Assembly: GCA_044372405.1 (NCBI GenBank)
Contig: JBILRW010000004.1
Span: forward strand, 7,171 to 71,170
Direction: 5' to 3'
DNA: 64,000 nt
From: Alphaproteobacteria bacterium
Lineage (GTDB): Bacteria > Pseudomonadota > Alphaproteobacteria > JAJTHO01 > CANGYM01
The notes under the pieces are model-generated. The model saw only the letters and a program-made list of their open reading frames with translations, ran no database searches and had not been told where the DNA came from. Below, in pieces: positions 4,050 through 52,856 of the stretch. The translations under genes were made by a program, and so were the position numbers. Within the stretch, counting starts at the first letter, position 1. Each line of letters starts with the position of its first letter.

Positions 4050-4108
4050 AAATATATCATAATCAGAATATATTGAAAATGGGATAATCTATCACGGTCA
4101 GCAAAAAC

Positions 4109-4230
4109 AGGACTTACGCAGAACCTTTGTCATTGCGAGCGCAGCGAAGCAATCCAGGAAGGCCGCCACTGGAAAGACTGGATTGCCACGCCTCCTGCGG
4201 AGGCTCGCAATGACGTTGGGCGCAAGTCCT
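4109..4230. repeat. type-1 palindromic element (RPE-like), copy 1
   Basis: aggacttacgcagaac-gtcattgcgagc...ctggattgccacgcctcctgcggaggctcgcaatgacg...cgcaagtcct; terminal inverted repeats plus internal palindrome; 9 related copies in window. Confidence 0.85.
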
Positions 4231-4236
4231 GAGGCC

Positions 4237-7155: not shown

Positions 7156-7197
7156 GGGCGGGGAAAAAATCGTTTTGTGTCACTGTATTCCTTCAGA

Positions 7198-7316
7198 ACT
7201 TAGGCAGAACCTTCGTCATTGCGAGCGAAGAGAAGCAATCCAGAAACGCCGATACCAGAAAGACTGGATTGCCACGCCTCCTACGGAGGCTCGCAATGAC
7301 GTTCTGCGTAAGTCCT
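7198..7316. repeat. type-1 palindromic element, copy 2
   Basis: cgtcattgcgagcgaagagaagcaatccag...ctggattgccacgcctcctacggaggctcgcaatgacgttctgcgtaagtcct between fabZ and tRNA-Arg. Confidence 0.85.
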
Positions 7317-7397
7317 ATCCTTAGTCCCATACCAGATTATCATGGGGGGGACAAATGGTTTGTGGGGGCGTGCAGGGCTGTTTATTTTTGAAAAACC

Positions 7398-14848: not shown

Positions 14849-14900
14849 GGTGATGATGGCCAAGGGATTTTATAAAGCCTGTGGGGCACCTCTATTAGCC

Positions 14901-14990
14901 GTCATTGCGAGCGCAGCGAAGCAATCCAGAAAGGCTGCTGTTCCCGGAAACCCTGGATTGCTTCGTCGCGTTGCTCCTTACAATGACGAA
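14901..14990. repeat. type-1 palindromic element, copy 3 (degenerate second arm)
   Basis: gtcattgcgagcgcagcgaagcaatccag...ctggattgcttcgtcgcgttgctccttacaatgacgaaaaa. Confidence 0.8.
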
Positions 14991-15026
14991 AAATTGGGGT
15001 TATTATGTAGAGGTTTTGAGCTGATT

Positions 15027-16929: not shown

Positions 16930-17257
16930 AAAAGGCGGGGTCGGGGCAGCAGGATTTGTCCCCCGGGTCAAGGGCGAGACGCCAAAAAAGTTGCGTAGCA
17001 AAGCCCCGAAGGGGCGGTCTTTTTTGGTGCGAGGCGAAGCGGACCCTTGAGGCGGGGGACAAATTCTGCTGGGTGGGAGCCTTTTCCTTGTGGGCCGAAC
17101 GCGGCTCCCGCCCCCACATTCAGGTAACAGGTATCAGGTTGCAGGTAACAGAAAACCCCGTCCTCTGGGGCTTGTTATTTCAAGGATACGTCTTGCTCTA
17201 CTTTTTTTCCTGTCACCTGTCACCTGTCACCTGTCACCTGATTCACCCCGCCACGTT
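16930..17257. repeat. ~325-bp composite element copy A (conserved 190-bp core plus heptad-repeat hairpin)
   Basis: ~90 percent identical to 37874-38197; hairpin arms caggtaacaggtatcaggttgcaggtaacag (17120-17150) and cctgtcacctgtcacctgtcacctgtcacctg (17208-17239); internal long-range pairing cagcaggatttgtcccc with ggggacaaattctgctg. Confidence 0.85.
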
Positions 17258-17355: not shown

Positions 17356-18573
17356 ATGAAAAAAATTATCGTAAAAAACCCCATCGTGGAAATGGATGGC
17401 GATGAGATGGCCCGTGTGATGTGGGATTTGATTAAGGAAAAGCTGATTCATCCCTATTTGGATTTGCCCATTGATTATTATGATTTATCCATTCAGTCCC
17501 GGGATGCGAGCCATGACCAGATTACCATTGATTCGGCCCTGGCGACGCAAAAGCACGGTGTGGCCATTAAATGTGCCACCATTACGGCGGATGAGGCCCG
17601 GGTGGCGGAGTTTGGCTTAAAAAAAATGTGGGCCTCTCCCAACGGCACCATTCGGAATATCCTGGGCGGGACGGTGTTTCGGGAACCCATTATTATTAAA
17701 AATGTTCCCCGTTTGGTCCCTGGTTGGACCCACCCCATTGCCATTGGCCGTCATGCCTTTGGGGATCAGTATAAGGCCACGGATTTTGTGGTGCCCTCTG
17801 CCGGAACGCTCACCATTACCTTCACCCCCAAAGACGGCAAAGGCGAGGTGATTTCCCACAAAGTGTACGATTTTGAATCCCCCGGCGTGGCCATGGCCAT
17901 GTATAATCTGGATGATTCCATTCGGGGTTTTGCCCGGGCGTGTTTGAATTACGGCCTACATCGCGGTTGGCCGGTGTTTTTGTCCACCAAAAACACGATT
18001 TTAAAAAAATACGATGGCCGGTTTAAGGATATTTTTCAAGAAGTGTTTGAGGCGGATTTTAAAGATGGCTTTGCCGAAAAAAACATTACCTATCAACACC
18101 GTTTGATTGATGACATGGTGGCATCGGCCCTGCGGTGGGATGGGAATTTTGTGTGGGCGTGTAAAAACTATGACGGGGACGTGCAGTCGGATTCTGTGGC
18201 CCAGGGGTTTGGGTCTTTGGGACTCATGACCTCCATTTTAATGACACCCGATGGAAAAACCGTGGAAAGCGAAGCCGCCCACGGCACCGTCACCCGTCAC
18301 TTTCGCCGGCACCAGCGGGGGGCGGAAACGTCCACGAACCCCATTGCCTCCATCTTTGCCTGGACCCGGGGCCTGTGGCATCGGGGTAAAATTGATGGTA
18401 ACGCAGAACTGCAACGCTTCAGCCAAATCCTGGAACAAACCTGTGTGGATACGGTGGAAAATGGCGAAATGACCCGGGATATGGCGCTGTTGATCGGGGA
18501 AGGCCAAACCTGGCTGAGCACGCAAAACTTCATCGGGGCCATTGCCAGAAATTTTGAGAAAAAACTGGGGTAA
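17356..18573 (+). CDS. icd: NADP-dependent isocitrate dehydrogenase (eukaryote-type subfamily)
   Basis: 405 aa [26 protein letters not shown]1-like type. Confidence 0.9.
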
Positions 18574-18579
18574 GGCAGG

Positions 18580-18804
18580 GCGATTTAATTGTCCGTCATT
18601 CCGGACAAAATGAGCGAAGCGAGTGCAGAGCCGGAATCCAGCGCAACTGTCAAAAGGCCCAGCCTTTTGCCGGTATATTTTTGAAAAACAAAGAACAAAA
18701 CGCCTCGCGTTTTGGCATATGTGCTGGATCCCGGATCGGCGCTCACTGCGTTCGCTGGTCCGGGATGACGAAAAACATTAATTTAGTGGACAATTAAATC
18801 GACC
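18580..18804. mobile_element. type-2 MITE-like element, copy 1 (core 18594-18770)
   Basis: 13-bp terminal inverted repeats cgtcattccggac / gtccgggatgacg; internal 80 bp is the reverse complement of the internal part of the copy at 60128-60305; nested in an outer 14-bp inverted repeat cgatttaattgtcc. Confidence 0.85.
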
Positions 18805-18809
18805 TGGGG

Positions 18810-19784
18810 TTAAGGCGCAATAAAAAAACTCTCCAAAGAAACAGGGTAATACGGAATTTCTGAGGTTTTTGCGGTTCTCAGCCGTTCTTCATAAAGATGC
18901 CGGATCAGGGATTCCCGGGCCGAAAGGGCTGTTTCGCATCCTGTATCCCACGTCATTTCCACCTTTTCTGGCAGGCTGTCCTGAATGGAAACCAAGGGTC
19001 CATGAAACAGGGGGAGCCAGTGTTCCATGCCCGGAAACGGATGGCCTGACTCAATGGCCTGATAAAAGGGATCGCTGGTGTAGTGTCCGGCAGACAGGAT
19101 GCGGTAGGCTTCTTTGAATCGTTGAATGCTGGCTTCTGTCAAGATGACTTCACACACCGGGGAAAGGGTGATGCTTTTCACCGCACGCACGGTGCATTGG
19201 GATAGGGGATCAAAGGCCCGGAGACTTTCGATGCCATCCCCAAAACGGTCAATCCGAATGGGATACTGAGAAAACGGTGGGAACACATCCATAATGCTGC
19301 CGCGCAAACAAAACTCGCCCCGTTGCCGAACGGTACTGGTGCGGGCGTAGCCCCCCTGGCGAAACCAATCCTGAACCACAGCATCGGGCAGCGTATCCCC
19401 CACGCGGATTTCATGCACCTGGTCTGTAAAAAAGGATGGCGGAGCCACCTTTTGCAGCAGCGCCGGGGCGGCAATAACCATGATGGTTGGCCGGTCGGCA
19501 AATCCCAAATGCAGGCGAGATAACGTGGCCAGACGTTCTGCCATAATATCTTTGTCAGGACTGATGCGCGCATAAGGATCGGTATCCCAGGGGGGTAAAC
19601 GCAACACACGGACATTGGGATCAAAAAAGGATAAAACACGGGCACAATAGTCCATGCGGGCCTCGTTTCGGGCCACGTGAACCAACAAGGTATCCACCGG
19701 TGTTTTCTGCCTGGCCTGTATCAGATCGTAAAAAGGACGGTCACTTTCCAGGGTCATGGGCAGGGCTTTGGTTTGAAGAGGCAA
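18810..19784 (-). pseudogene. mfd: transcription-repair coupling factor Mfd, N-terminal fragment only (324 aa)
   Basis: VLRLPPWDTDPYARISPDKDIMAERLATLSRL and GEFCLRGSIMDVFP match the Mfd UvrB-homology module; ORF stops at the MITE and the RecG-like helicase and C-terminal domains (~800 aa) are absent. Confidence 0.7.
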
Positions 19785-19823
19785 AATTTACCGGGTTTGG
19801 AGGGAAAGTAAATAAGATACCAA

Positions 19824-20035
19824 GGTCATTCCATAAACCCGCTTTATATTCTGGGAAGAATGGCGTTGAGATGGCGATTAACGGGGCAGAATTGCAGCAG
19901 ACTTTAAGTGAGTGCATGGTGGGAGAGCCGCCCATTCTCACGCTGAGCATTGATGGCAAAACGCTACGTGGTTCTAAGTCTTATGAGCACCCTGCCACGC
20001 ACTGCGTGAGTATTTTTTGCCATGAATGAACGGCG
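19824..20035 (+). mobile_element. ISAs1-family IS remnant (one end plus internal transposase fragment)
   Basis: ORF fragment ...LSECMVGEPPILTLSIDGKTLRGSKSYEHPATHCVSIFCHE matches the ISAs1-family transposase (H-repeat protein) segment IAIDGKTLRxSYD...AIHxVSAF; terminus ggtcattccataaacccgctttatattctgggaagaatgg shared with 23443-23547. Confidence 0.55.
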
Positions 20036-20157
20036 GTGGCGGGAGTTACGTTTTTTTTTACAGAAAACAAAACAGCCAAAAACAAAACATCTCTTGACGT
20101 CAAGGGGCGGTGGTTTATTGTTGAACCCATGATTTTATCCCTTGTTTTTTATTTTTT

Positions 20158-20637
20158 ATGACCGTCCCCTTTGAACCCCGCCGCACCATTGAACAGGTTG
20201 AGGAAGGCCATGACCTGGCCCCCAAGTTTGATGAACACGGTTTGATCCCCGTGGTCACCACCTCCGCGGAAACGGGTGAGGTTTTGATGCTGGGCTATAT
20301 GAATGCCGAGGCGCTGCAAAAAACCATTGAAACGGGCCAGGCCCACTACTATAGCCGCAGCCGTAAGGTCCTCTGGCACAAAGGCGCCAGCAGTGGCCTA
20401 ATTCAACATGTCACAGAAATCCGCATTGACGATGATCAGGATGCTGTGTGGATTCGGGTCAGCATCGGTGGCGATTTGGGCGAAGCCAGCTGTCACGTGG
20501 GATACCGCAGTTGTTTTTACCGCAGCATTCCCCTGGGGGCCCATCAGGGCAAAGTCATCTTGACCTACGAAGAAAAAGAAAAAACCTTTGATCCCCTGGC
20601 GATTTATGGGGATGTGCCGAATCCAACGATTCTTTAA
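20158..20637 (+). CDS. hisI: phosphoribosyl-AMP cyclohydrolase
   Basis: 159 aa, GLIPVVTTSAETGEVLMLGYMNAEAL...YYSRSRKVLWHKG typical HisI; monofunctional. Confidence 0.85.
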   Translation: MTVPFEPRRTIEQVEEGHDLAPKFDEHGLIPVVTTSAETGEVLMLGYMNAEALQKTIETGQAHYYSRSRKVLWHKGASSGLIQHVTEIRIDDDQDAVWIRVSIGGDLGEASCHVGYRSCFYRSIPLGAHQGKVILTYEEKEKTFDPLAIYGDVPNPTIL

Positions 20638-23442: not shown

Positions 23443-23547
23443 GGTCAGGGTCATTCCATAAACCAGGATTAGACGAGGAATCCGATGGCTGTGGAGGTCA
23501 ACACCATTCTTCCCAGAATGTAAAGCGGGTTCATTGAATGACCCTGA
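23443..23547. mobile_element. 105-bp palindromic IS-end-derived element (solo ISAs1-like terminus pair)
   Basis: gggtcattccataaacc...ggttcattgaatgaccc termini inverted; internal segment is the reverse complement of the IS end at 19824-19895. Confidence 0.5.
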
Positions 23548-23640
23548 TAAGACACTGGATCTTTTTTTGCGCTTTCTGCAAAAGGTGTATAGGATCACCC
23601 GCATTCAGAAGCCATCCCACAAACAAAAAAGGACCCAAGC

Positions 23641-24210: not shown

Positions 24211-24226
24211 AAGGCCCCTCTCAAAA

Positions 24227-24331
24227 CCTCAATGTTTCGTCTTTGCGAGCCTCCGTAGGAGGCGTGGCAATCCACTCTTTCCTTTGTCGGCCTTTCTGGA
24301 TTGCTTCGCTGCGCTCGCAATTGACGTTCTG
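24227..24331. repeat. type-1 palindromic element, copy 4
   Basis: cgtctttgcgagcctccgtaggaggcgtggcaatcca...ctggattgcttcgctgcgctcgcaattgacgttctgcgtaagtcct. Confidence 0.85.
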
Positions 24332-24430: not shown

Positions 24431-24823
24431 TTAGCCGGCTTGCTGATCGCATACCTTTTGGACTTCCCGCCAGGTGTCGGCCATGGTGGTCATGGAATCA
24501 ATGACGGCATCGCAGATGTCGGGGTCATTTTTGATATTGATTTTGGCCAACATGGTTTGCAAAAACTGGTAATAGTTTTCCAGAACATCGCACATTTGAT
24601 CCGTGGCGGCGTTGCGATCCAGGCAGCTCATCAGGCCCGTCACCAAAGTCATACATTTTTCGGTTTCGTTGTAACGGGCTTCATATTGGTTGGCCAGGAC
24701 GTGTTCTTTGGCCTGTTTGATGTAGCTGACGCCTTTTTCCATCAGGCGGGCAATCTGCTCCCCCGGGGGCAGGCTGGTGACGTTGTTGGCCTTGTAGGCA
24801 CTCTGGGCGTATTTTTTGTGCAT
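24431..24823 (-). CDS. fliS: flagellar export chaperone FliS
   Basis: 130 aa from MHKKYAQSAYKANN...; four-helix pattern matching FliS (…LYxxxxxxLxxAN…W); upstream ORF extension is translated repeat. Confidence 0.7.
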   Translation of the reverse strand: MHKKYAQSAYKANNVTSLPPGEQIARLMEKGVSYIKQAKEHVLANQYEARYNETEKCMTLVTGLMSCLDRNAATDQMCDVLENYYQFLQTMLAKINIKNDPDICDAVIDSMTTMADTWREVQKVCDQQAG

Positions 24824-24865
24824 GGGGGTAAGGATACAGGAAGACAATAAAAAAAGGATTATTGC

Positions 24866-24995
24866 GGCACCTCTAAAAACCCCCAATTTTTCGTCATTGC
24901 AAGTCGCAACGCGACGAAGCAATCCAGGGTTTTCGGGGGCTGTGGCCTTTCTGGATTGCTTCGCTGCGCTCGCAAAGACGGTTTTTAGAGGTGCC
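24866..24995. repeat. type-1 palindromic element, copy 5 (both arms of gaagcaatccag type, outer IR ggcacctctaaaaac)
   Basis: tttcgtcattgcaagtcgcaacgcgacgaagcaatccag...ctggattgcttcgctgcgctcgcaaagacggtttttagaggtgcc. Confidence 0.8.
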
Positions 24996-25086
24996 CTTTC
25001 TGATGAACACCCCGATGATGAACACCCCGACTGGACAATGTTTTGCCGCCGGGATAGGGTAGACGAGACGATTGAGTAAGGTCCCC

Positions 25087-27892: not shown

Positions 27893-27925
27893 GGAGCGCC
27901 GAATCCGGGATGACGAAAAACATAG
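27893..27925. repeat. fragment of type-2 MITE terminus
   Basis: gagcgccgaatccgggatgacgaaaaacat resembles the right terminus gctggtccgggatgacgaaaaacat of the 18.6 kb copy. Confidence 0.4.
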
Positions 27926-27949: not shown

Positions 27950-30900
27950 CTAACCCCCCGCCAAAACCAACGCCCGCGCTGTCCGCAGGTCCATTTTTCC
28001 TGTGGACAGCAGCGGGATGGTGTCGGTTTTCACCATGGCATCGGGGCGGGGCAGCCAGAGATTGGGCAGGCGGCCGGTTTTTTTCAGGGCCTCGTAAAGC
28101 GTTTCCGGGGTCAAGGTCTCACTGACAAACAGGACCCCCAGACGTTCGCCCTTGCTGGCATCGGGCAGGCTGACCACAACGGCCTGATGGTCCCCCAAAA
28201 CGGCGTGGATTTCTTCCTCGATTTTCCCATGGGGCACCATTTCGCCGCCCATTTTGCTGAATCGGCTCAGGCGGTCTGTGATGATCAAAAACCCATCGGG
28301 GTCCAGTTTTCCAATATCGCCCGTGTCATACCAACCGTCCTTCATGACAGAGGCCGTCCTGTCCGGATCATTGTAATAGCCCTGCATTTGGGAGGGACTT
28401 TTGATAAAAATCCGGCCTTCCTGATCGGGGGGCAAGATCGTATCGCTTTCCAGATCCAAAATCCGAACGCTGACGCCTGGGATGGGTTTGCCCACACTGC
28501 CCAGGCGGGTTCCTTTGTGCTGCAGGCCCCCGTGCTGAATATCCGGAACATTTACCGATACGACGGGGCCCAGCTCGGTGGTGCCATAGCCCTCTAAAAC
28601 ATGGGCCTGGGGCAACGCGGCCGCCAATTTTTCCGCCGTTTCGGCGGTGAGTTTTTCACCGCCCACAATGACCAGTTTCAGGCTGGCCAGCTCGCCTTCT
28701 TTGGCGGTGGTTGTGTAGGTGCGAACAAAGGTGGGGGTGGCCACAATCAGGCCGCATTTTTCTTTGTGAATCGTGCGCACCACGGTTTTGGCATCCAGGG
28801 GGTTGGGGTGATACACCACGCGCCGCCCCGTAATGGCCGGCAACCACAGGCACGCCGTTAAGCCAAAGGAATGGAAAAACGGCAAAATCCCCATCAGGGT
28901 TAATTCGGTTTTCGTTTCACTTTCTCCCTCCGCCTGTTCCAGCAAAACGCCGATGCTTTCGATGTTGGCGATGATGTTTTGGTGCGACAGGGCAACGGCC
29001 TTGGGCGTTCCCGTGCTGCCGCTGGAAAACAGCAGGACCGCTGTATCGTTTTTATGGCCGCGCACCCACAGAGATTTTAACAAAAACGTGGGAAACAACG
29101 CCACTTGCACCAAAGCTACGAGTTTTCCGACCTTGGAAAGGGTAGCCGGCATATCCTCAAGAAAAACCATGCGGTCATCGGGGGCGATGTTTGCCTTTTC
29201 AATAAAGGTCCTTGAGGTGATGATGGTGGTGGCGGAGAGGGTTTTTAGGGCCGTGGCCAGGGCCTCCGCCCCCAAAGAAAAGTTTAGATTCACGGCAACC
29301 TTGCCCTGCATCACCGCCGCGATATTCACCAAAGCCCCCCCCACCGTCGCGGGCAGTAAAATGGGAATGTTACCGCCGGAGGTATTTTTTTTCAGCCATA
29401 GCCCAATCAGCCGCGCCCCCACCAGGGCCCGAAAGCCGGTGCATTTTTTTCCCGTGGTATCGGAAAAAATCGTATCCCGAAAATGTCGCCGCATCTGGGT
29501 GACAAAACGTCCCCCCAGGGTGTCCTTATCAGCATAGCGCAGCGGGATGGCATCGGTGCCCAGCTCGGAAACGATATGTTCCAGTTCCCAGGCCTGGGTT
29601 TGCGCCGGCACAGCCTGTCCCACGGAAACCGTGACGGGATAGGGGATTTGTTTGGGCCATTTTTTGAAAAAACGGCGACCGGAAAAGCTGAAAATGCTGC
29701 CCCATAACCGCTCCAGATGGACCGGCAGGATGTCCACATCCATCCCGTCGACCAATTTTTCAACGCCGCGTTTAAAGGGATAGAGATGACCCGTGCGGCT
29801 GAGGACGCCTTCGGGAAAAATGCAGATAACACCCCCTTCGCGCAGGCGCTCCCGCGCTGTTTCCAGGCCCTGGCGTGTCTCCCCCACGGCCCCACTGCCA
29901 AAGGGAATGGCACCGGCCGCCGTTAAACAAAAACGGGTCAGGGGTTTTTTCCAGAACTTGGCCAAGACCAGAAAATGCACCCGCTTGGGCGCCATCATAC
30001 TGATCACCAGCCCATCAATAAACGTGACGTGATTGGCAATAATCACGGTGGGCCGCGTCAGGGGGGGGAATTTTCCCTTCTCCAGGCCTGGCCCCACCAA
30101 GGTGACCCGATAAATGCCGCGCATGACTGCGTAAAGAAGAGATTCCAGGGCATCCTGCAACAATTTGGGATAGGCCATAACGCCCAGCGCAAGCCCGAAC
30201 AGCACAATCACCCCACTGGCGGTAATCATGCCAGAGGCACTGAGGCCCACCTGGGTTCCCAAAAGCCAGAATAAGCCCGAGGCCAGCAAAACCCCCATCA
30301 TATCAAAAAAATTATTCACGGCCATAACCTGGCCCCGCTGATCATCGGGGGATTCCTTTTGCATCAGGGTCACCACCGGCACAATAAACAGCCCGGCCCC
30401 CAAACCCGCCAGCGTAATCCAAAACGCCGTATCCCAATATCCCGTGGCAAACAATCCGCACGCGATACAGGCCAGTCCCATAATCACCGCGCCCCAGACA
30501 ATCAGGGTTTTGCGAATGCTTTTGCCCAAAATATAACCGGCGGCGATGCTGCCAATTCCAATACCCACCGCCAGAAAGGAAAACAGCGATGCGGCCTTGG
30601 CATCACTCAACCCCAAATGGGTGGTGCCGAGCAAAATCAGGGACAGATAAATGAGTGCCCCCAGCATCCAATACACCGCGCTGCCGGATAAGGCCCCGAT
30701 TAAGCTCCGGCGTGTCTTCACAAGGGGCCACGCATGAACGATTTCCCCAAAGGGGTTGAGATCAAAGGGCTTACTGGGATTAAAAAGGGTCGTTGTGGGG
30801 GCAAACAAACACAAAACGGTGCCGATCACCGCCAGGGCCGTTAAAATCACCCCAATAATAATGGGGTTATGCTGAAAAACCTGCCACATCACACCGCCGG

Positions 30901-31381
30901 CCAAAGAGCCCGTGATAATGGCCACAAAGGTGAGCATATTCAGATACCCATTGGCTTTGGGCCAATCCTCGGGCTTCATCCATTCCGGCAAAATCCCGTA
31001 TTTTGACGGGCTGAAAAATGTTGCCTGAACCGCCGTAAAAAACAGCGTCATCATCAGCAAATCCATGCGATGGGGGGCCCATATAAAAATGACCAATGCC
31101 GCCCCCATGGCCACAATTTCAACGGCTTTGCTGAGTTTTAAGACACGGCTTTTCGGGTATCGATCCGTCAAATACCCCGCGTACCCCGAAAACAACACAA
31201 ACGGCAAAATGGACAGGGCGCTGATGACGGATAAATAGGTCTTTTGCTGATTGGGATCCGTGAACATGGCCACAGAGGCCAGGGACAACACCAGCTTAAA
31301 GGCATTATCATTAAACGCCCCCAAAAACTGGGCCGCCAGAAAACACAAAAAACGCGGGTGAAACGGATGGATTTTGATCAT
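27950..31381 (-). CDS. aas: tri-domain fusion: MFS lysophospholipid transporter (LplT-like) + 2-acyl-GPE acyltransferase (PlsC fold) + acyl-ACP synthetase (Aas)
   Basis: 1143 aa; N-terminal ~400 aa with 12 TM (MFS); middle HxxxxD acyltransferase motif ANHVTFIDG with FPEG; C-terminal AMP-binding domain (SSGSTGTPKAV, YGTTE, TGDIGKLD). Confidence 0.8.
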   Translation of the reverse strand: MIKIHPFHPRFLCFLAAQFLGAFNDNAFKLVLSLASVAMFTDPNQQKTYLSVISALSILPFVLFSGYAGYLTDRYPKSRVLKLSKAVEIVAMGAALVIFIWAPHRMDLLMMTLFFTAVQATFFSPSKYGILPEWMKPEDWPKANGYLNMLTFVAIITGSLAGGVMWQVFQHNPIIIGVILTALAVIGTVLCLFAPTTTLFNPSKPFDLNPFGEIVHAWPLVKTRRSLIGALSGSAVYWMLGALIYLSLILLGTTHLGLSDAKAASLFSFLAVGIGIGSIAAGYILGKSIRKTLIVWGAVIMGLACIACGLFATGYWDTAFWITLAGLGAGLFIVPVVTLMQKESPDDQRGQVMAVNNFFDMMGVLLASGLFWLLGTQVGLSASGMITASGVIVLFGLALGVMAYPKLLQDALESLLYAVMRGIYRVTLVGPGLEKGKFPPLTRPTVIIANHVTFIDGLVISMMAPKRVHFLVLAKFWKKPLTRFCLTAAGAIPFGSGAVGETRQGLETARERLREGGVICIFPEGVLSRTGHLYPFKRGVEKLVDGMDVDILPVHLERLWGSIFSFSGRRFFKKWPKQIPYPVTVSVGQAVPAQTQAWELEHIVSELGTDAIPLRYADKDTLGGRFVTQMRRHFRDTIFSDTTGKKCTGFRALVGARLIGLWLKKNTSGGNIPILLPATVGGALVNIAAVMQGKVAVNLNFSLGAEALATALKTLSATTIITSRTFIEKANIAPDDRMVFLEDMPATLSKVGKLVALVQVALFPTFLLKSLWVRGHKNDTAVLLFSSGSTGTPKAVALSHQNIIANIESIGVLLEQAEGESETKTELTLMGILPFFHSFGLTACLWLPAITGRRVVYHPNPLDAKTVVRTIHKEKCGLIVATPTFVRTYTTTAKEGELASLKLVIVGGEKLTAETAEKLAAALPQAHVLEGYGTTELGPVVSVNVPDIQHGGLQHKGTRLGSVGKPIPGVSVRILDLESDTILPPDQEGRIFIKSPSQMQGYYNDPDRTASVMKDGWYDTGDIGKLDPDGFLIITDRLSRFSKMGGEMVPHGKIEEEIHAVLGDHQAVVVSLPDASKGERLGVLFVSETLTPETLYEALKKTGRLPNLWLPRPDAMVKTDTIPLLSTGKMDLRTARALVLAGG

Positions 31382-32060: not shown

Positions 32061-32180
32061 GGATCTAAAACCCTCAATTTTTCGTCATTGCGAGCCTCCG
32101 TAGGAGGCGTGGCAATCCAGGATTTCGGGAGCTGTAGCTTTTCTGGATTGCTTCGCTGCGTTCGCAAAGACGGTTTAAGA
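32061..32180. repeat. type-1 palindromic element, copy 6
   Basis: ccctcaatttttcgtcattgcgagcctccgtaggaggcgtggcaatccag...ctggattgcttcgctgcgttcgcaaagacgg. Confidence 0.85.
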
Positions 32181-35591: not shown

Positions 35592-35997
35592 TATTTTTTT
35601 AGGACGCCTGGAAAAACCTGAACTTTTCGTCAAAAATTTCCTGACCTTATCACCCTACGAAATGGAAAATCTCTGGTACAAATGCTGATTTTCTCGTCAT
35701 GCTGCGCATCGTCGTAGCATCCAGGTGGATTCGCCACTGACGTGCGGATGACGATTAGAAATGAACAGCCCTGGCGCCCCCAATGGAAAACCTTGCAACA
35801 CGCGGGACCCTTTGATATACCTGTCGCATCTGAAGAGTATCGCTGGCTGCGCGTTCGCCTTAGCCTTATTTGTGTACATTTCGTACACGGCACTCGGCTG
35901 CGGCGATGCTCGCCTACCGATACTCTCCATCTGCAATAGGTATAGCCTCAGGCTCTACTGTGACAAAGATCCCTGCACCGTTCATAAAAATCAAAAA

Positions 35998-37873: not shown

Positions 37874-38197
37874 GAAAAGGCGGGGCGGGGCAGCAGGATT
37901 TGTCCACCGGGTCAAGGGCGAGACGCCAAAAAAGTTGCGTAGCAAAGCCGCGCAGCGGCGGTCTTTTTTGGTGCGAGGCGAAGCGAACCCTTGAGGCGGT
38001 GGGCAAATTCTGCTGGGTGGGAGCCTTTTCCTTGTGGGCCGAACGCGGCTCCCGCCCCCACATTCAGGTAACAGGTTGCAGGTAACAGGTAACCCAGCCC
38101 TCTAGGGCTTGTTATTTCGCTGGTACGTCTTGTTCCACTCTTTTTTCCTGTTACCTGTTACCTGCAACCTGTTACCTGATTCACCCCGCCGCGTTTT
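37874..38197. repeat. ~325-bp composite element copy B
   Basis: ~90 percent identical to 16930-17257 including heptad hairpin arms 38065-38093 and 38147-38178. Confidence 0.85.
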
Positions 38198-38380
38198 CCA
38201 TAAAATCGCTTTTGGCTGAACCTTCCTTTGCCAGCAAGGGATTATGAGATTATGAACACAGGCTCTTAGGGCACCTCACCCCTTGGCCCATTTTTTGCAC
38301 CACCCTACCCGAACACCCCTCTTTACCCTTTATCAACCAAAGGGGGCGTACACTGATCAACACATAGTCATGGTGAAGCG

Positions 38381-41931: not shown

Positions 41932-42235
41932 CACACTCCCTGCTGGCGAGATTTTCAAATTCCGCCCAACTCATAAGGGGTGCAGGCCGGTCTGTGACAC
42001 AGTAAAAATATGATAACTGACTCTCAGTGAGGGTTAGGCACCCCACAAGCAGAGCCATCTGTTTCTGTGGTGTCTAGCACCAAAAACTGAGAAGCTGAGA
42101 ACAATCCTCAAGCGTAAATAAGAGCATCTGGTGGATGCCTTGGCGATTGCAGGCGATGAAGGACGTGCTAGGCTGCGATAAGCAGCGGGGAGGGGCCAAG
42201 ACCCTTTGATCCGCTGATTTCCGAATGGGGGAACC

Positions 42236-42335
42236 CACCTTTCAGGTGACAGGTGACGGGTGACAGGTAACAGGTTTTGCATTGCGCAGGCCTGTCACCT
42301 GATACCTGTAACCTGTCGCCTGATCTAGGTATTCT
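42236..42335 (+). other. 23S rRNA intervening sequence 1 (helix 9 position), heptad-repeat hairpin
   Basis: arms caggtgacaggtgacgggtgacaggtaacagg / cctgtcacctgatacctgtaacctgtcgcctg replace helix 9. Confidence 0.8.
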
Positions 42336-42729
42336 TTGGCTGAACACATAGGCCTTAGAAAGCAAACCCAGTGAACTGAAACATCTCAGTAGCTGGAGGA
42401 AAAGACATCAACCGAGATTCCGTAAGTAGTGGCGAGCGAACGCGGAACAGCCCAGTGCTCTCTCGAATGTAACTGGAACGACTTGGAAAAGTCGGCCATA
42501 GTGGGTGATAGCCCCGTACAGGTAAGAATAGAGAGAGACTCGAGTAGGGCGGGACACGTGAAATCCTGTCTGAACATGGGGGGACCACCCTCCAAGGCTA
42601 AATACTCGCAATCGACCGATAGTGAACCAGTACCGTGAGGGAAAGGCGAAAAGAACCCCCATAAGGGGAGTGAAATAGAACCTGAAACCGGATGCTTACA
42701 AGCAGTTGGAGCGGGCGCACCCGAGGGCT

Positions 42730-42860
42730 GCGCCCAGGTAACGGGTAGCAGGTAACAGGTAACAGGTAGAAACTTTCGGGTCATAAACTTTTGTTAAATT
42801 GATCTGAAATTTTTCTTCCTGTCACCTGTCACCTGTCACCTGTCACCTGGCCGCGCCCTC
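42730..42860 (+). other. 23S rRNA intervening sequence 2 (helix 25 position), heptad-repeat hairpin
   Basis: arms caggtaacgggtagcaggtaacaggtaacaggtag / cctgtcacctgtcacctgtcacctgtcacctgg with AT-rich 50-nt loop, at the helix-25 IVS site known from Salmonella. Confidence 0.8.
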
Positions 42861-43808
42861 CGGCGCGCCCGTGACAGCGTACCTCTTGTATAATGGGTCC
42901 GCGACTTAGTGTAGCAAGCAAGGTTAAGCCGATAGGTGGAGCCGAAGCGAAAGCGAGTGTGAATAGCGCGTTTAGTTTGCTGTATTAGACCCGAAACCAA
43001 GTGAGCTAACCATGGCCAGGCTGAAGGTTGGATAACACCAACTGAAGGGCCGAACCCACGTCTGTTGAAAAAGACGGGGATGAGCTGTGGTTAGGGGTGA
43101 AAGGCCAATCAAACTTGGAAATAGCTGGTTCTCCGCGAAAACTATTTAGGTAGTGCGTCAGACGAATACCATGGGGGGTAGAGCACTGAATCGGCTAGGG
43201 GGGCGCGAGCCTTACCAAACCGAATCAAACTCCGAATACCCATGAGTACTATCTGGCAGACAGGCATCGGGTGCTAAGGTCCGGTGCCGAGAGGGAAACA
43301 GCCCAGACCGCCATCTAAGGTCCCCAAGACTATGTTAAGTGGGAAAGGATGTGGGAAAGCCATGACAGCTAGGAGGTTGGCTTAGAAGCAGCCATCCTTT
43401 AAAGAAAGCGTAATAGCTCACTAGTCTAATCAAGCATTCCTGCGCCGAAGATGTAACGGGGCTCAAACATAGCACCGAAGATGCGGGCGCGCCTATGGCG
43501 CGCGGTAGCGGAGCGTTCCCTAAGCCGTCGAAGCAGTCCTGTCAGGGGCTGTGGAGGTATGGGAAGTGAGAATGCGGACATGAGTAGCGACAAACAGAGT
43601 GAGAGACTCTGTCGCCGAAAGCCCAAGGGTTCCTATCCAATGCTAATCAGGGTAGGGTTAGTCGATTCCTAAGGCGAGGCCGAAAGGCGTAGTCGATGGG
43701 AACACGGTTAATATTCCGTGACCTTTGGTCCGTGACGGATCGAAACGATTGTACTTTCTTATCGGATTGATAAGTGCAGTCCAACGGTTCCAGGAAATAA
43801 CGGACCAG

Positions 43809-44380
43809 CTTGGGATTGTTTAAGGGAAAAGAAAAAAGCACGCCAGAGGCGACGTGCTAGAAATTTATTCGTTGTTGCGTCGACGATCAATTTCGTCGAG
43901 TGCAGCGAATGTGATGCATCCTGGAAGCATCGAAATTGCCCCAGGAATGTTTAAAACAAAAAGAAAAAAGAATCTCCATCCTCCTTCAACAAGGATCATT
44001 TCTGCTCCTTGCTTTGGAAATAGGGAAATTCTGTCGGTTTTAAACTCCTTCTCCAGAAGAATTGCGGAGAAGTAAACAAAAAACACGACTGTAACTAAAG
44101 AAGAAACGACTAAATTTAGGCGTCTTTTTTTGTACTTATCCATGGTGTTAAGTTATTTAACTAAGGTTTATTTTGACATTATGCAGTGCAGTGCAGTGCA
44201 GTGCAGTGCAGTGACATTTGTCACATTACGAAAAATAATTTCCCTTAAACAATCCCAGGCGTTCAGGTGACAGGTAACGGGTAACAGGTGACAGGTTGTG
44301 GGTTACAGGTTATGGGTAGATTTTCTACCTATTTTCTGTTTCCTCTTCCTGTTACCTGTCTCCTGTTACCTGTTACCCGG
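43809..44380 (+). other. 23S rRNA intervening sequence 3 (helix 45 position), composite ~570 bp
   Basis: 19-bp inverted repeat cttgggattgtttaaggga / tcccttaaacaatcccagg bounds an AT-rich 410-bp module with a 92-codon ORF (43865-44143, minus) and a (GCAGT)5 microsatellite (44183-44207); followed by heptad hairpin 44263-44379. Confidence 0.8.
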
Positions 44381-44649
44381 ACAATGATCGTACCCGAAAC
44401 CGACACAGGTGGGCAGGTCGAGTAGACCAAGGCGCTTGAGAGAAGTATCCTGAAGGAACTCGGCAAATTGCTCCCGTAACTTCGGAAGAAGGGAGCCCGT
44501 CATGAAGGCAACTTTTTGGCGGGGTCACAAAAGAGGGGGTTGCGACTGTTTAACAAAAACACAGGACTCTGCGAAGTCGTAAGACGAAGTATAGGGTCTG
44601 ACGCCTGCCCGGTGCCGGAAGGTTAAGGAAGGATGTGCAAGCATTTGAC

Positions 44650-44729
<80 letters not shown>

Positions 44730-45170
44730 TGAATGGCGTAACGACATCCCCACTGTCTCCAGGATATACTCAGCGAAATTGAATTCCCCGTGAAGATGCG
44801 GGGTTCCCGCGGTCAGACGGAAAGACCCCGTGCACCTTTACTACAGCTTTACACTGGCTCTAGGAATATCATGTGTAGGATAGGTGGGAGACTTTGAAGC
44901 CTTGGCGCCAGCCAGGGTGGAGTCAACCTTGAAATACCACCCTTGATGTTTTTAGGGTCTAACCCAGGTCCGTGAATCCGGATCGGGGACCGTGTATGGT
45001 GGGTAGTTTGACTGGGGCGGTCGCCTCCCAAATGGTAACGGAGGCGCGCGAAGGTAAGCTCAGTACGGTCGGAAATCGTACGTCGAGTGCAATGGCATAA
45101 GCTTGCCTGACTGCGAGGCTGACAAGCCGAGCAGAGACGAAAGTCGGTCATAGTGATCCGGTGGTTCTTC

Positions 45171-45224
<54 letters not shown>

Positions 45225-45253
45225 AACGCCCAAGCGTCCACAGCGACGGCGTT

Positions 45254-45331
<78 letters not shown>

Positions 45332-45339
45332 TGGTACGT

Positions 45340-45380
<41 letters not shown>

Positions 45381-45688
45381 TGCCGTGGGTGTTTGATGAT
45401 TGAGAGGATTTGCCCCTAGTACGAGAGGACCGGGGTGAACGTACCTCTGGTGTACCGATTGTGGCGCCAGCCGCATCGTCGGGTAGCTATGTACGGAACG
45501 GATAACCGCTGAAAGCATCTAAGCGGGAAACCGGCCTCAAAACGAGTCATCGTAGAGCCGTAGTAGACCACTACGTTGATAGGTGGCGTGTGAAAGGGTG
45601 GTAACACCTGAAGCTAAGCCATACTAATCGCTCATCTCTCTTTTGGATTGTTCTCGCGTCTTATGTTTTAACAAAGACGCATCTCATG

Positions 45689-47290: not shown

Positions 47291-47395
47291 TGTTTTCCGT
47301 TTCTGTCCATACGAACACAAACCGCGTTCACCAAAAATTTTATTTTGAAAAAACGGAAAATTCCGCCATACTCTGCAACTATGACACGTTGTTCG

Positions 47396-47435
47396 GGCTA
47401 CCGGATCTGCGTTCGCGTTGCTTGCCCGGTATGAC
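47396..47435. repeat. half-copy of type-2 MITE (right arm only)
   Basis: ggctaccggatctgcgttcgcgttgcttgcccggtatgacgaaaaa matches gctggataccggatctgcgttcgctaacgctcacttgtccggcatgacgaaa. Confidence 0.6.
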
Positions 47436-47474
47436 GAAAAAATAAGAGGGGCTTGTTTTGATCGTAAATTGACC

Positions 47475-49131: not shown

Positions 49132-49459
49132 GATCCCCTGCCCCCGATACCAAACGAAAGGTCCGGCTGCAATACGGACAGACGATTTGCCTTTGAGATC
49201 CCATGGCCAGATAAACCTTTGGATGTCCCAAGGGCCCGCCGCCGCCATCACATGAGGGACGCGGGGTTTTGACATCAATAACCTCGAAGGCATCCGCGTT
49301 TGGAGGGGTCAGGGGTGAAACGGATGGGATCATGATACGGGGTTTCCTGGATTTTTCCTGTTTTTTATAAAGGGGTTTGGGGGAAAAATCAATGGGAGGG
49401 TTTAAGTGTTTGTTTTTAGCCTTTCCTTAAAGAATTGGCTTTTATAGTCATAGGATTCG

Positions 49460-49578
49460 GGACTTAGGCAAAACCTTGCGTCTGGCGAGCGCAGCGAAGC
49501 AATCCAGAAATGCCGATACCGGAAAAACTGGATTGCCACGCCTCCTACGGAGGCTCGCAATGACGTTTTGCGTAAGTC
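49460..49578. repeat. type-1 palindromic element, copy 7
   Basis: ggacttaggcaaaaccttgcgtctggcgagcgcagcgaagcaatccag...ctggattgccacgcctcctacggaggctcgcaatgacgttttgcgtaagtc; flanked by direct ATAGGATT. Confidence 0.85.
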
Positions 49579-49619
49579 ATAGGATTGTTTTGGGAAGCCA
49601 TAGAGGAACCACAACCACC

Positions 49620-50228
49620 ATGCGGGTCAAGGTTATTGAGTGTCATCACCAAGGGACCCTATCCATGGACGGGTTATCCGATCTGTTATCGGCGCGTTTT
49701 TTGATGCACAAGCATGATTTGTTTGCGGTGGATGAGGACGGAAAACAGGCTGTTTGGTTGCAAAATTATTACCGCATGAACCCACCGGCGGTTCTGGTTG
49801 GTAAAGGGAATGTGGAAATTTCTCCCCTGGCGATTTTATCGCTGTGCCGGAAAGCCAGCCTGGAATTTTTGCGCGAGATCAAAGAATCCCTGAACCAATA
49901 CAAGCAAAGCATTGCCCATATTAAAAAAGCCGTTCACGTGCCCAGTGGGGGGGAGGTGTGTATTGAACCCAGCCATATGCTGCTGGAGACCTCCGACAGC
50001 CAAGTCTTAATCACCTTGGTGCGTCAAGGGGAACAGGGGATTTTGGTTCTGGATAACATGGTGCCCCGTGTCGGAGATACCCTAACGGCGGAGGCCTTTG
50101 CCCAGAAAAAAGCCATTTATTATCATGATTCCACGGGGCTAAATCATGATATTGTGGCGTTTCACTTGCGGGACCACCCGGATGATCCGGGGCATGAGGT
50201 GCATGTTTTAATTAAGGTGCAGCTTTAA
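49620..50228 (+). CDS. hypothetical protein (202 aa)
   Basis: ORF beginning MRVKVIECHHQGTLSMDGL...; upstream extension of the ORF is translated repeat; no recognisable domain. Confidence 0.45.
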   Translation: MRVKVIECHHQGTLSMDGLSDLLSARFLMHKHDLFAVDEDGKQAVWLQNYYRMNPPAVLVGKGNVEISPLAILSLCRKASLEFLREIKESLNQYKQSIAHIKKAVHVPSGGEVCIEPSHMLLETSDSQVLITLVRQGEQGILVLDNMVPRVGDTLTAEAFAQKKAIYYHDSTGLNHDIVAFHLRDHPDDPGHEVHVLIKVQL

Positions 50229-51987
50229 CATCCTCAATGATCACCTGAACGGTGGGCGTGCTGCCCCAGGTGTCTTTTTTTAAGGTTCCGGCCACCGAAA
50301 GAGGTTTTCCCCGACTGTTAAGTAAGGCCTGACCCATGGGATGATCGGCGCAGCGAAAGGCAATGGCCTTGGATGACCAAGCACGCTGGGGATCCTTCAG
50401 CTGACACCGCACATGGGCCCCGCCCACAACACCCGCAAAGGACACCACCACCTGATGAAACGCAAAACGCGGCTGGGGGTTGCCCACGCCAAAGGGCGAA
50501 AGGCGCTCAATCTGCTCCACCAAAGACAGATTGGCGGCGGTGAGCGGTAGCGATAAATCCAAATCCAAGAGCGGGCGAATGTTATCCCGGGCAATAATTT
50601 CGCCAATGCGGGATTCAAAAAACGCATGGGCCGCTGTCAGTTGATCCGCTGTCACGCTAAAGCCCCCCGCCATGGCATGGCCGCCGCCGGCCAGCAAGAT
50701 CCCCTCTTGCCGCGCCGCCAGGATCATCTGCCCCAGGTGAATGCCCCGAATGGATCGGCAAGAGGCCTTGGCAATCCCCTTATCATCCAGCGCCAAAACC
50801 ACCGCAGGTTTGTGGTAACGATCCTTTAGCCGGCTGGCTACAATGCCGATAACACCCGGATGCCAGCCCTGGCCATAGACCCAGATCATGCTGCCGGTGG
50901 TGCCCTCGGCCTGGCGGATGGCTTGATCCAGGATATCGGCTTCGATGGTTTTGCGCTCGGCATTGTGCAGGGCCAGGGCCTGGGAATACACCATGGCTTG
51001 CTGCGCATCATCACAGCTGAGCAATTTCGACCCCATATCCGATTGCCCCACGCGGCCCCCGGCATTGATATGGGGGCCCAGGATAAAGCCCAGGTGATAG
51101 GGGCTGGGGGCCTCGTCCAAACGAGCCACATCAGAAAGGACCTTTAGCCCCATGTTCATGCGGCGGCCCAACACCTTCAGCCCCTGGGAAACAAAGGCGC
51201 GGTTGATGCCATGCAGTGGCACCACATCACACACCGTTCCCAGCGCCACAATATCCAAGAGCAAGAGTAAATTAGGCTCGGGCTGGGTTTCAAAAAAGCC
51301 TTCTTTTTTTAATGTTTGATTTAACGCCACCAAAAACAAAAACGTCACCCCCACCGCCGCCAGGTGACCGCAGGGGCTGTCTTCATCCAAACGATTGGGA
51401 TTCACCACGGCCACGGCGGGGGGCAAGGCGCTTTCCCCCACGTGATGGTCAATGACAATAACATCCAGCCCCAAATCCCGGGCATAGCCCAGGGGATCAT
51501 GGGCCACAATGCCGCAATCAACGGTAATGACCACCTTCATCCCCAGAGCCTTCAGTTTATCAAACGCCCCCCGATTGGGGCCGTAGCCCTCTGCCATACG
51601 GTCCGGAATATACACCGTCAGCGGCCGGCCCAGCATACTCATATAGCGTTTCAGCAGCGCCGATGATGTCGCCCCATCCACATCGTAATCCCCAAAAACG
51701 GCGATGGCGTCTTTGTTTTTCAGGGCGGCCACCATGCGGGTGACGGCGCGGTCCATGTCCTTTAGGTGGAACGGATCGGGGAGTAACTCCTTCAGCCGGG
51801 GATTCAAAAAAACGGCTGCCGTTTCCAGGGCAATGCCGCGAATGGCCAACAGTTTCCCCACAACCTCTGGCACGCCATGCCGCTGTGCCAGGGCCAAGGC
51901 CGTGCGGTCTGAATAGGGCTTCAGCGACCACAGCCGACCCGTCAGGGAAAGCGATTCATCCAATACATCCATAAAACATCCCTTCAA
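50212..51987 (-). CDS. recJ: single-stranded-DNA-specific exonuclease RecJ
   Basis: 591 aa, DHH motifs FGDYDVDGATS and VIVIDHHV, DHHA1 domain, C-terminal OB fold. Confidence 0.9.
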   Translation of the reverse strand: MKGCFMDVLDESLSLTGRLWSLKPYSDRTALALAQRHGVPEVVGKLLAIRGIALETAAVFLNPRLKELLPDPFHLKDMDRAVTRMVAALKNKDAIAVFGDYDVDGATSSALLKRYMSMLGRPLTVYIPDRMAEGYGPNRGAFDKLKALGMKVVITVDCGIVAHDPLGYARDLGLDVIVIDHHVGESALPPAVAVVNPNRLDEDSPCGHLAAVGVTFLFLVALNQTLKKEGFFETQPEPNLLLLLDIVALGTVCDVVPLHGINRAFVSQGLKVLGRRMNMGLKVLSDVARLDEAPSPYHLGFILGPHINAGGRVGQSDMGSKLLSCDDAQQAMVYSQALALHNAERKTIEADILDQAIRQAEGTTGSMIWVYGQGWHPGVIGIVASRLKDRYHKPAVVLALDDKGIAKASCRSIRGIHLGQMILAARQEGILLAGGGHAMAGGFSVTADQLTAAHAFFESRIGEIIARDNIRPLLDLDLSLPLTAANLSLVEQIERLSPFGVGNPQPRFAFHQVVVSFAGVVGGAHVRCQLKDPQRAWSSKAIAFRCADHPMGQALLNSRGKPLSVAGTLKKDTWGSTPTVQVIIEDVKAAP

Positions 51988-51996
51988 GCAGGGGCA

Positions 51997-52581
51997 TCAT
52001 AGCAAAGTTTGGGGCCAAGTGATGGATTTCATGCGATCTCGTGCGGACTGAGAAATAAAATAACAATCTCCCTCGTCATACTTAGCACCCCAAATGTCGC
52101 ACTTAGGAAATATCCTTTCAACACATTGAAGCCACTCCATCTCAACGCCGCAGCCCACCAGTTCCAAACGCTTTAAATTCGAGAGAGGCCTTATCCAATC
52201 CGTGCTAGAGGGAATCTGAAGGCATATTAAAGTAAGAGCCTCTAAATTCACCAATGATCCTAGAGCATAAAACAAATTGTGATCAAATTTTTTTTCGAAT
52301 ATCGCTTTGTATTTGCGATTAAGTTTATTTGGGTATTTCTGATTCAGATAATATTCGAATGCGTCATCTTCGTATTCGATATCGATAACCAAGCGATTAA
52401 TGTCTGGGGGAATCTCTGAGAAGTTCGTGCATTCCTGGCCATTAAAGACTCTAAAAATATTTTCACATTTTTCATAAGAAAACTTCGTTGTAAAAGCGGA
52501 TTTAGCCATAAGCCCTAAGCACGAAAAACTGTTGAAAGTGGCATCATAGCAAAGTTTGGGGGAAGGGACAGGGGGGATCAT
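51997..52581 (-). CDS. hypothetical leucine-rich-repeat protein (eukaryote-like cysteine-containing LRR), AT-rich
   Basis: LVNLEALTLICLQIPSSTDWIRPLSNLKRLELVGCGV fits LxxLxLxxCxxI LRR_cc consensus; low-GC ORF immediately beside tRNA-Cys; true start may be MAKSAF at 52509. Confidence 0.5.
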   Translation of the reverse strand: MIPPVPSPKLCYDATFNSFSCLGLMAKSAFTTKFSYEKCENIFRVFNGQECTNFSEIPPDINRLVIDIEYEDDAFEYYLNQKYPNKLNRKYKAIFEKKFDHNLFYALGSLVNLEALTLICLQIPSSTDWIRPLSNLKRLELVGCGVEMEWLQCVERIFPKCDIWGAKYDEGDCYFISQSARDRMKSITWPQTLL

Positions 52582-52667: not shown

Positions 52668-52720
52668 TTGCATGATTCATTTTATAAAGACCCTGCCGTT
52701 AAAAAGCAAGATGATTGTGG

Positions 52721-52836
52721 AATTTACGCAGAACGTCATTGCGAGCCTCCGTAGGAGGCGTGGCAATCCAGTCTTTTGTGGCGGCATTTCTGGGTTGCTT
52801 CGCTGCGCTCGCAATGACGAACACTTTGCGTAAGTC
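52721..52836. repeat. type-1 palindromic element, copy 8
   Basis: aatttacgcagaacgtcattgcgagcctccgtaggaggcgtggcaatccag...gggttgcttcgctgcgctcgcaatgacgaacactttgcgtaagtc. Confidence 0.85.
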
Positions 52837-52856
52837 ATTGATTGCAAAGGACTTTC

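Follow-up and report, generated by a model that had tools for sequence, protein, structure and literature searches.

The window examined here, a 64-kb stretch of alphaproteobacterial DNA (64,000 nucleotides of contig JBILRW010000004.1, assembly GCA_044372405.1), carries a 177-bp palindromic element made of two inward-facing hairpin arms around a centre of about 80 bp. By its sequence, this is a non-coding, palindromic, dispersed repeat that occurs in either orientation and resembles a miniature inverted-repeat transposable element (MITE); the open reading frames (ORFs) of 50 aa within it are spurious. Its first copy, between icd and an mfd-like gene, is nested in a larger inserted unit of 231 bp, which is flanked by a 9-bp direct repeat and is missing from otherwise nearly identical strains. 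We consider it probable, if well short of certain, that such shell-bounded units are non-autonomous and are moved in trans, with their hairpins serving as sites of an Ssn-type nuclease.

Copy 1 was found in both a filled and an empty state. Contigs L010 and L011, from two JGI samples, are 99.9% identical to window positions 18036–20480 but do not contain positions 18576–18806, so the insertion is recent; the filled allele is also present on L001. The empty allele reads ...CTGGGGTAAGG / CTTACAAGCCTGGCGA / CGCAAT..., and the filled allele reads ...CTGGGGTAAGG / CAGGGCGATTTAATTGTC-core-(18 nt)-GACAATTAAATCGACCTG / GGGTTAAGG / CGCAAT.... The inserted unit spans 231 bp (18576–18806), and the 177-bp core is nested in a shell that has inverted ends of its own. 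The segments around the core are as follows:

18567–18575 (no strand assigned): left copy of the direct repeat, 9 bp, GGGGTAAGG, overlapping the icd stop codon (18571–18573); a single copy in the empty L010 and L011, two copies here.
18576–18593 (plus strand): left outer inverted end, CAGGGCGATTTAATTGTC; absent from L010 and L011.
18771–18806 (plus strand): right outer segment, ending in GACAATTAAATCGACCTG (18789–18806); absent from L010 and L011.
18807–18815 (no strand assigned): right copy of the direct repeat, GGGTTAAGG, 8/9 identical to GGGGTAAGG.

The outer ends of copy 1 form an 18-bp inverted repeat (17/18 positions) that none of 300 shuffles equaled; the left end starts with CAGGG, and the right end reads CAGGT. 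The hallmarks of a MITE, namely inverted ends, a target duplication, and a presence/absence polymorphism, are all found at this locus. The empty allele is taken to be ancestral, because excision cannot create the 16 bp that it alone carries (a small hairpin, AGGCTT-ACA-AGCCT, together with the last residues of the mfd-like protein) and because the SPGL at the end of that protein resembles the C-termini of its homologues. The original prediction, which was made from the sequence of the window alone, regarded the feature as a MITE-like mobile element; the empty site in near-identical strains supports this, as do at least 16 further copies in relatives, several of which have duplications of 8–10 bp.

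Among these relatives, 18 metagenome contigs each contain a full copy at 80–87% identity. In relatives at about 80% nucleotide identity, some 10 copies share a homologous shell, CAGGGCTGTTCATGTCTATGCAT-core-...GAAATGAACAGCCCTG (231–232 bp), at different sites; copies of this length have ends CAGGGCTGTTCAT... and direct repeats of 8–10 bp (GGTTTTTTTA, CAGACGTA, and ACGCTAGAG). The flanks of the copies share no homology able to drive recombination. In all 20 copies, the boundaries of the core, CGTCAT and ATGACG, are sharp, and the outer segments vary. On L139 and L150, the flank beyond the direct repeat repeats a few bases of the element's opposite end (GCCCTG-N9-element-N9-GGGGC; 18–19 bp in all), which points to insertion beside sequences resembling the ends or to a preference for targets of the form CTG-N8-9-CAG. 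When L147 and L149 were compared with window position 7575 as a possible interspecies empty site, the downstream sequence was not orthologous.

The second full copy in the window also lies in a larger unit:

60092–60341 (minus strand): copy 2 unit, 250 bp, with the core at 60128–60305 and different outer ends, TATAACAATTCAC...GTGAATGGGTATA.

These ends form an imperfect inverted repeat of 24 nt, and one of 300 shuffles was as good. In the sister strains L153 and L155, whose flanks are 98–99.5% identical, the 250-bp unit is inverted as a whole and has only 87.5% identity; because the shell is inverted together with the core, the shell travels with it. The copy 2 spacer of these strains also contains an additional type-1 element (a second hairpin family, described below) and 284 extra bases, and this spacer is a hot spot. 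The extra sequence of about 284 nt, in the msrB spacer, lies at 1880–2163 of L153 and 1160–1257 of L155 and is absent from the window. Reading an IS903-like or CAGGG-type end into the flank of copy 2 was unconvincing and was given up.

Alignment recovers the two full copies, 18594–18770 and 60128–60305, where the original prediction had placed them, and its estimate of arms of about 50 bp agrees with the measured length of about 48 nt. The predicted 13-bp inverted ends (CGTCATyCCGGAC / GTCCGGrATGACG) exist and are complementary at 12/13 positions, but they are not the true termini of the inserted 231-bp unit. Dispersal in either orientation holds as well, since copy 2 is reverse-complemented relative to copy 1. 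What does not hold is an interior inverted relative to the arms as an exact reverse complement: copy 2 in its entirety is copy 1 reverse-complemented (global alignment score 280; 198 in direct orientation). Identity comes to 86.6% over the full length, 90.2% in the centre, and 81.6% and 85.4% in the two arms. Each copy consists of two halves that are imperfect inverted repeats (77-nt arms, 77%), and because its ends therefore look alike either way, the interior can seem to be inverted.

The arms, 47–48 nt each and facing inward, have the general form CGTCAT-N-CCGG-(24–26 nt)-CCGG-N'-ATCCAG and resemble the NTS units and Ssn-related motifs (SRMs) considered below. Between them, the centre of about 80 bp contains two similar short hairpins flanked by A/T (18651–18669 and 18696–18714), in agreement with the prediction of two small interior hairpins:

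18594–18641 (plus strand): left arm, NTS/SRM-like hairpin unit, CGTCAT-TCCGG-(26 nt)-CCGGA-ATCCAG.
18651–18669 (no strand assigned): core hairpin 1, CAAAAGGC-CCA-GCCTTTTG, kept in 20 copies.
18686–18714 (minus strand): core hairpin 2 with a T-rich tail, terminator-like, CAAAACGCGAGGCGTTTTG then TTCTTTGTTT.
18724–18770 (minus strand): right arm, NTS/SRM-like hairpin unit, CGTCAT-CCCGG-(25 nt)-CCGGG-ATCCAG.

Core hairpin 2 proper (18696–18714) has the form CAAAACGC-nnn-GCGTTTTG and scores as terminator-like; together with its T-rich tail, it is the best-conserved part of the family. The 246-nt region as a whole forms a single long hairpin when folded (−66.6 kcal/mol, z = −8.45). The repeat is far above chance, with one pair of arms 130 nt long and 88% complementary. 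The arm stem was assessed in an alignment of 19 distinct arms, from the window and the 18 metagenome contigs. It comprises eight pairs, with 96% of cells paired and compensatory changes at 3/8 pairs (T-A, C-G, A-T, G-T; CCGG/CCGG to CCAG/CTGG). None of 500 shuffles reached its covariation score, and slid registers drop to 9–43% paired. Columns 1–6 (CGTCAT) are invariant across the alignment, as are C45, C46, A47, and G48, that is, the C after the stem and the tail. Rfam yielded no family at gathering thresholds or at E up to 1, except for a chance PhrS match of 12 bits, and a plasmid collection yielded no match to the 230-bp unit.

In Neisseria, NTS is CGTCATTCCCGCGMAVGCGGGAATCYRG, and the Ssn-related motifs are hairpins of 20–50 nt; small GIY-YIG nucleases (SsnA, cd10448) bind and cut these motifs solely as single-stranded DNA, the C directly after the palindrome is critical for binding, and ssn genes typically have motifs on their flanks (Chenal et al. 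2025, PMC11893778). From the shared features, we infer that the arms are hairpin motifs of the NTS or Ssn-related type and that they may be bound by Ssn. The likeness extends to the CGTCAT head, the palindromic stem, the C after the stem, an ATCCAG-type tail (the published tail is like ATCYRG), an arm length within 20–50 nt, over-representation, intergenic position, frequent arrangement in inverted pairs, and, in relatives, a small single-domain GIY-YIG gene beside such units. Unlike the known motifs, the arms here have a TCCGG-type stem and a loop of 24–26 nt, no cognate nuclease gene is seen within the window, and the pair is a fixed part of a larger element that has inverted ends and target duplications, an arrangement not described in PMC11893778. 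The NIMEs of Neisseria (dRS3 ATTCCCN8GGGAAT) are likewise units of 50–150 bp bounded by inverted hairpin motifs, and the arm ends CGTCATTCC...GGAATCCAG are identical to the ends of the dRS3-containing NTS; the stem sequence and the taxon differ, and only the element here has outer inverted ends and direct repeats.

The frame CGTCAT-N15-45-ATCCAG matches 17 times in the window against 0.16 expected (about 100-fold), a count reached by none of 100 shuffles; 16 of the 17 matches are convincing. This frame is common to the 177-bp element, the type-1 family, and a short type at 35695. Scanning one genome per species with the arm pattern gave at least 120 loci, in Alpha-, Beta-, Gamma-, and Deltaproteobacteria, Chloroflexota, Acidobacteria, and others; among the matches listed, nearly all interiors are self-complementary, and many occur as inverted pairs.

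Ssn-like genes adjoin such units in relatives. On L144 and L142, a gene for a 106-aa GIY-YIG protein (PF01541, E = 7e-16) lies upstream of a full copy, at a distance of 61 nt; on L121, from a metagenome-assembled genome of Propionivibrio, a GIY-YIG gene has CGTCATTCCGGCGAAAGCCGGAATCCAG on both flanks (short-loop arms); and on L123 (Roseibium), two GIY-YIG genes adjoin arms of this type. The label Ssn-like is given on the basis of the Pfam GIY-YIG domain and not of a cd10448 assignment. The wider GIY-YIG protein family has 2750 matches at E ≤ 1e-10, NCBIfam contains no model for the protein, and the PDB offered only remote GIY-YIG matches (E > 0.1). An Ssn protein in the genome of the window may recognize these arms. 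The gene on L144 (238–557) and L142 (820–1155) has been inserted with a lytic transglycosylase gene on one side and an rlpA-like gene on the other, and the 177-bp element follows it directly; the gene caller had fused the element into the rlpA-like ORF.

The 231-bp unit entered the 3' spacer between the convergent icd and mfd-like genes recently, with duplication of 9 bp of target. The likely mechanism is a transposase that acts in trans on the shell-bounded unit and makes cuts staggered by 8–10 bp. The CAGGG ends and repeat length of copy 1, and of the 232-bp copies in relatives, point to an ISAs1-like enzyme as the candidate. Members of the ISAs1 family have an inverted end of 14–22 bp starting with CAGGG and a direct repeat of about 10 bp (PMC11946415); similarly, copy 1 has 18-bp ends starting with CAGGG and a 9-bp direct repeat, and the 232-bp copies have CAGGGCTGTTCAT ends and repeats of 8–10 bp. 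The two hairpins would serve as places where a small GIY-YIG nuclease of the Ssn type, with its gene elsewhere in the genome, binds and cleaves single-stranded DNA. After insertion, the element is probably also a terminator or RNA-end hairpin for the convergent genes on either side. Such a unit would be like the MITEs derived from insertion sequences (ISs) in being small, non-coding, found in either orientation, and polymorphic in presence, and unlike the usual MITE in that its interior, not its ends, is most conserved.

Several observations weigh against this account. The two alleles of copy 1 differ by more than a clean insertion, the filled one being 16 bp short and having one substitution in the repeat. 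The right end of copy 1 departs from the ISAs1 form in reading CAGGT; copy 2, whose ends are unrelated, lacks CAGGG, as do the differing outer ends of several copies in relatives; and some copies (on L146 and L144, and copy 2) show no clear direct repeat. Because of these differing ends and missing repeats, a single transposase family cannot explain all copies. The link to ISAs1 is made by five bases and the repeat length. Neither in the window nor at the loci of relatives that were examined was there an ISAs1 transposase or a full-length parent with the same ends; the 64-kb window has no transposase but a Xer-like tyrosine recombinase, and phmmer found no Ssn-like GIY-YIG gene in it. Single arms fold no better than shuffled sequence, so that support for the arm stem comes from covariation only, and the terminator-like match is no commoner than in shuffles. 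Finally, because of their loops of 24–26 nt, the full arms fail the published pattern HGTCWYN(0-2)YYVSBRHN(0-5)WNVSBRGN(0-2)RNCYNB, whose only match in the window is at 60869–60897.

The original prediction went further and held that copy 1 abuts a truncated mfd. The genes on either side of the insertion are as follows:

17356–18573 (plus strand): icd, isocitrate dehydrogenase (Pfam Iso_dh, E = 1e-57), convergent with the mfd-like gene; an identical protein is encoded on L001.
18810–19757 (minus strand): stand-alone Mfd-N-terminal-like gene, about 315 aa, with a UvrB-interaction domain; intact.

The UvrB-interaction domain is the sole domain of the ORF (18810–19784). The prediction itself had set the same arrangement in relatives against truncation by insertion, and relatives at 55–76% identity do carry the same gene of about 315 aa, with the same end and different neighbours. 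Across the homologues at 55–100% identity, lengths are 314–336 aa, the end position is the same, and the adjoining genes are unrelated; because of this agreement in length and end in unrelated contexts, the gene is regarded as a conserved stand-alone gene and not as the product of an insertion-driven truncation. The protein ends in ...FFIASPGL in the element-free allele and in ...FFIAP here, the former being three residues longer, and the G-to-T difference in the right direct repeat creates the stop codon (18810–18812). The insertion event altered only the last few codons. An annotation trap is corrected in this way, the short Mfd-N-like gene being genuine and conserved and no pseudogene. An uncultured alphaproteobacterial lineage has kept the stand-alone Mfd N-terminal homologue (L002–L013) in varied surroundings. 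The window has no full-length mfd; a 1143-aa ORF (27950–31381) considered for this role is an MFS/acyltransferase/AMP-binding protein. Exact-protein look-ups of the 324-aa ORF and of a periplasmic-binding protein gave no match. Directly upstream of the mfd-like gene, a 52-nt inverted repeat (88%; 19818–19869 and 23498–23549) brackets a 3.6-kb block with hisI, gcvPB-like, purQ-like, and lone nuoC-like genes, which could be an invertible or rearranged segment.

With this gene accounted for, the idea that a plain 177-bp MITE with 13-bp terminal inverted repeats truncated mfd can hardly be sustained. The 13-bp ends and the two copies are real, and the element does abut the stop of an ORF that has only Mfd's UvrB-interaction domain; set against this are the homologues just described, the mere three residues gained in the element-free protein, and the present/absent segment, which measures 231 bp and has other ends. 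It is also improbable that the element is not mobile itself and owes its spread to homologous recombination or gene conversion, by which a palindrome with a structural or regulatory function (such as a bidirectional terminator or recombination site) would be copied from one locus to another. Such copying is in keeping with the terminator-like core hairpin, with the preference of copies for convergent 3' spacers (convergent-gene spacers hold four of the five copies of the window), and with the differences between strains, which at copy 2 amount to replacement and not clean insertion and at copy 1 to an indel plus a substitution; inverted ends with 8–10-bp direct repeats at several independent sites argue against it, as do flanks without shared homology.

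An inverted pair of repetitive extragenic palindromic (REP) units, of the REPIN or BIME type, spread by a RAYT transposase (Y1, IS200/IS605-like), seems highly unlikely. The likeness is considerable, with two inverted extragenic hairpin units, positions at gene 3' ends, high copy number, and possible terminator or mRNA-stabilizing roles. REP elements, however, have the tetranucleotide GTAG or GTGG as their head, and the conserved head here is CGTCAT; several copies have direct repeats, which single-strand Y1 transposition does not make; and the genes found flanked by arms encode GIY-YIG and not Y1 proteins, although no search aimed at RAYT was made. A stronger contender, if still an unlikely one, is that the 177-bp hairpin pair is itself mobile through the action of an Ssn GIY-YIG nuclease on single-stranded DNA, as an IS-like NTS-ssn-NTS system. 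Insertion would then, with no greater likelihood, favour the loops of existing palindromes or terminators and leave variable outer inverted repeats. The sharp core boundaries in 20 copies with different outer segments fit this view, as do the inverted repeats of varying sequence that flank most copies, the small hairpin AGGCTT-ACA-AGCCT at the empty copy 1 site, and the Ssn-like gene that adjoins a copy; an IS-like origin was raised in the Ssn paper itself (PMC11893778). On the other side, the copies in relatives that share one shell at different sites, about 10 in number and each with its own direct repeat, indicate that shell and core moved together, and the copy 2 shell is inverted with the core in sister strains. 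Ssn cuts about 3 nt from the motif, not 18–36 nt off (PMC11893778), and has no known transposition activity. Movement of the shell-bounded unit by a transposase in trans therefore remains the reading that we prefer.

Beyond the two full copies, partial and related units occur in the window:

27893–27925 (plus strand): terminal fragment comprising an arm's 3' half and AAAAACAT from the outer segment; 20/20 identical to copy 1.
35695–35773 (plus strand): third, shorter hairpin pair, CGTCATGCTGCGCATCGTCGTAGCATCCAG then a degenerate partner, ending in GAAATGAACAGCCCTG.
47382–47471 (plus strand): half element, a single degenerate arm plus outer segment.
60840–60926 (plus strand): half element comprising part of core hairpin 2, an arm whose loop differs, and an outer segment (family D13).

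Fragments had been predicted at 27893–27925 and 47396–47435, and both are present, the latter at 47396–47441 and, in its full extent, at 47382–47471; the partial copy at 60840–60926 and the larger units 18576–18806 and 60092–60341 are additions. The outer end GAAATGAACAGCCCTG of the 35695 pair is also the outer end of the 232-bp copies in relatives.

The type-1 family consists of units of about 120–126 bp, each with an inverted pair of CGTCATTGCGAGC...GCAATCCAG hairpins, of which one has a short loop and the other a long one:

4106–4231, 7192–7321, 14884–15004, 24219–24329, 24876–24996, 32064–32176, 49456–49581, 52715–52836, and 62802–62928: type-1 copies.

Their outer inverted ends are of two kinds, GGACTTACGCAGAAC and GGCACCTCTAAAAAC. 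A clean 8-bp direct repeat, ATAGGATT, flanks the copy at 49460, and a clear target duplication was found in only 1/5 copies examined. A terminus in common with the 177-bp element had been predicted, and ATGACGAAAAA is indeed shared with some type-1 copies (14983, 24887, and 32078). The further proposal of a common mobilizing enzyme is only partly supported, because the hairpin frame is common to both families but the outer inverted ends differ; judging from the frame, a shared hairpin-binding protein is plausible. Two type-1 copies flank a FliS-like gene; the gene between two such elements at 24431–24922, considered as a possible ssn, is FliS-like by eye and has no phmmer match to the Ssn-like protein.

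Other repeats are also present. The 23S rRNA match (42108–45648) is 3541 nt long against a model of 2925 nt, and the extra sequence coincides with inverted heptamer arrays, GGTGACA / TGTCACC (42231–42324, 42723–42865, and 44252–44381), which look like intervening sequences built of heptamer hairpins. Intergenic tandem arrays of CAGGTGA-type heptamers, often inverted pairs about a short spacer, occur at 2881–2952, 17109–17256, 38141–38205, 52848–52895, and 60000–60057. A 219-nt repeat (16931–17149 and 37875–38093, 93% identity) forms an internal palindrome (GCAGGATTTGTCCCCCG...CGGGGGACAAATTCTGC) and directly adjoins heptamer arrays; it recurs on L002 and L138 at 73–81% identity and has no Rfam match.

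The host RecJ is 52–55% identical to that of Rhodospirillales-type genera, the nearest named ones, and 88% identical to that of an uncultured relative, L156. Because a 21.8-kb stretch of L156 contains no CGTCAT...ATCCAG unit, against 16 convincing ones in the 64-kb window, the expansion of the hairpin frame looks lineage-specific. The genes around recJ (49476–52581) are entirely different in L156, several genes of the window lie outside their usual operons, and synteny in this lineage appears poorly conserved.

The element belongs to known kinds, namely Ssn-related repeats, NIME-like mosaics, and MITEs, and what it usefully adds is a pair of filled and empty alleles. Catalogues of NTS/dRS3-type repeats go back more than 20 years; Ssn, the protein that partners them, was not discovered until 2025, and the way in which they multiply is still an open question (PMC11893778). 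Related freshwater populations hold a family of copies, one of them beside an Ssn-like gene. With a filled and an empty site in strains 99.9% identical, defined ends, and a target duplication, the mechanism of spreading becomes testable. There is some chance, though a small one, that Ssn-related hairpins spread as fixed inverted pairs within inverted-end units that make 8–10-bp duplications, in which case the copy 1 polymorphism would be a first natural snapshot of the expansion of NTS/dRS3-like repeats, or else that they act as subterminal signals of a GIY-YIG-dependent transposition not recognized before.

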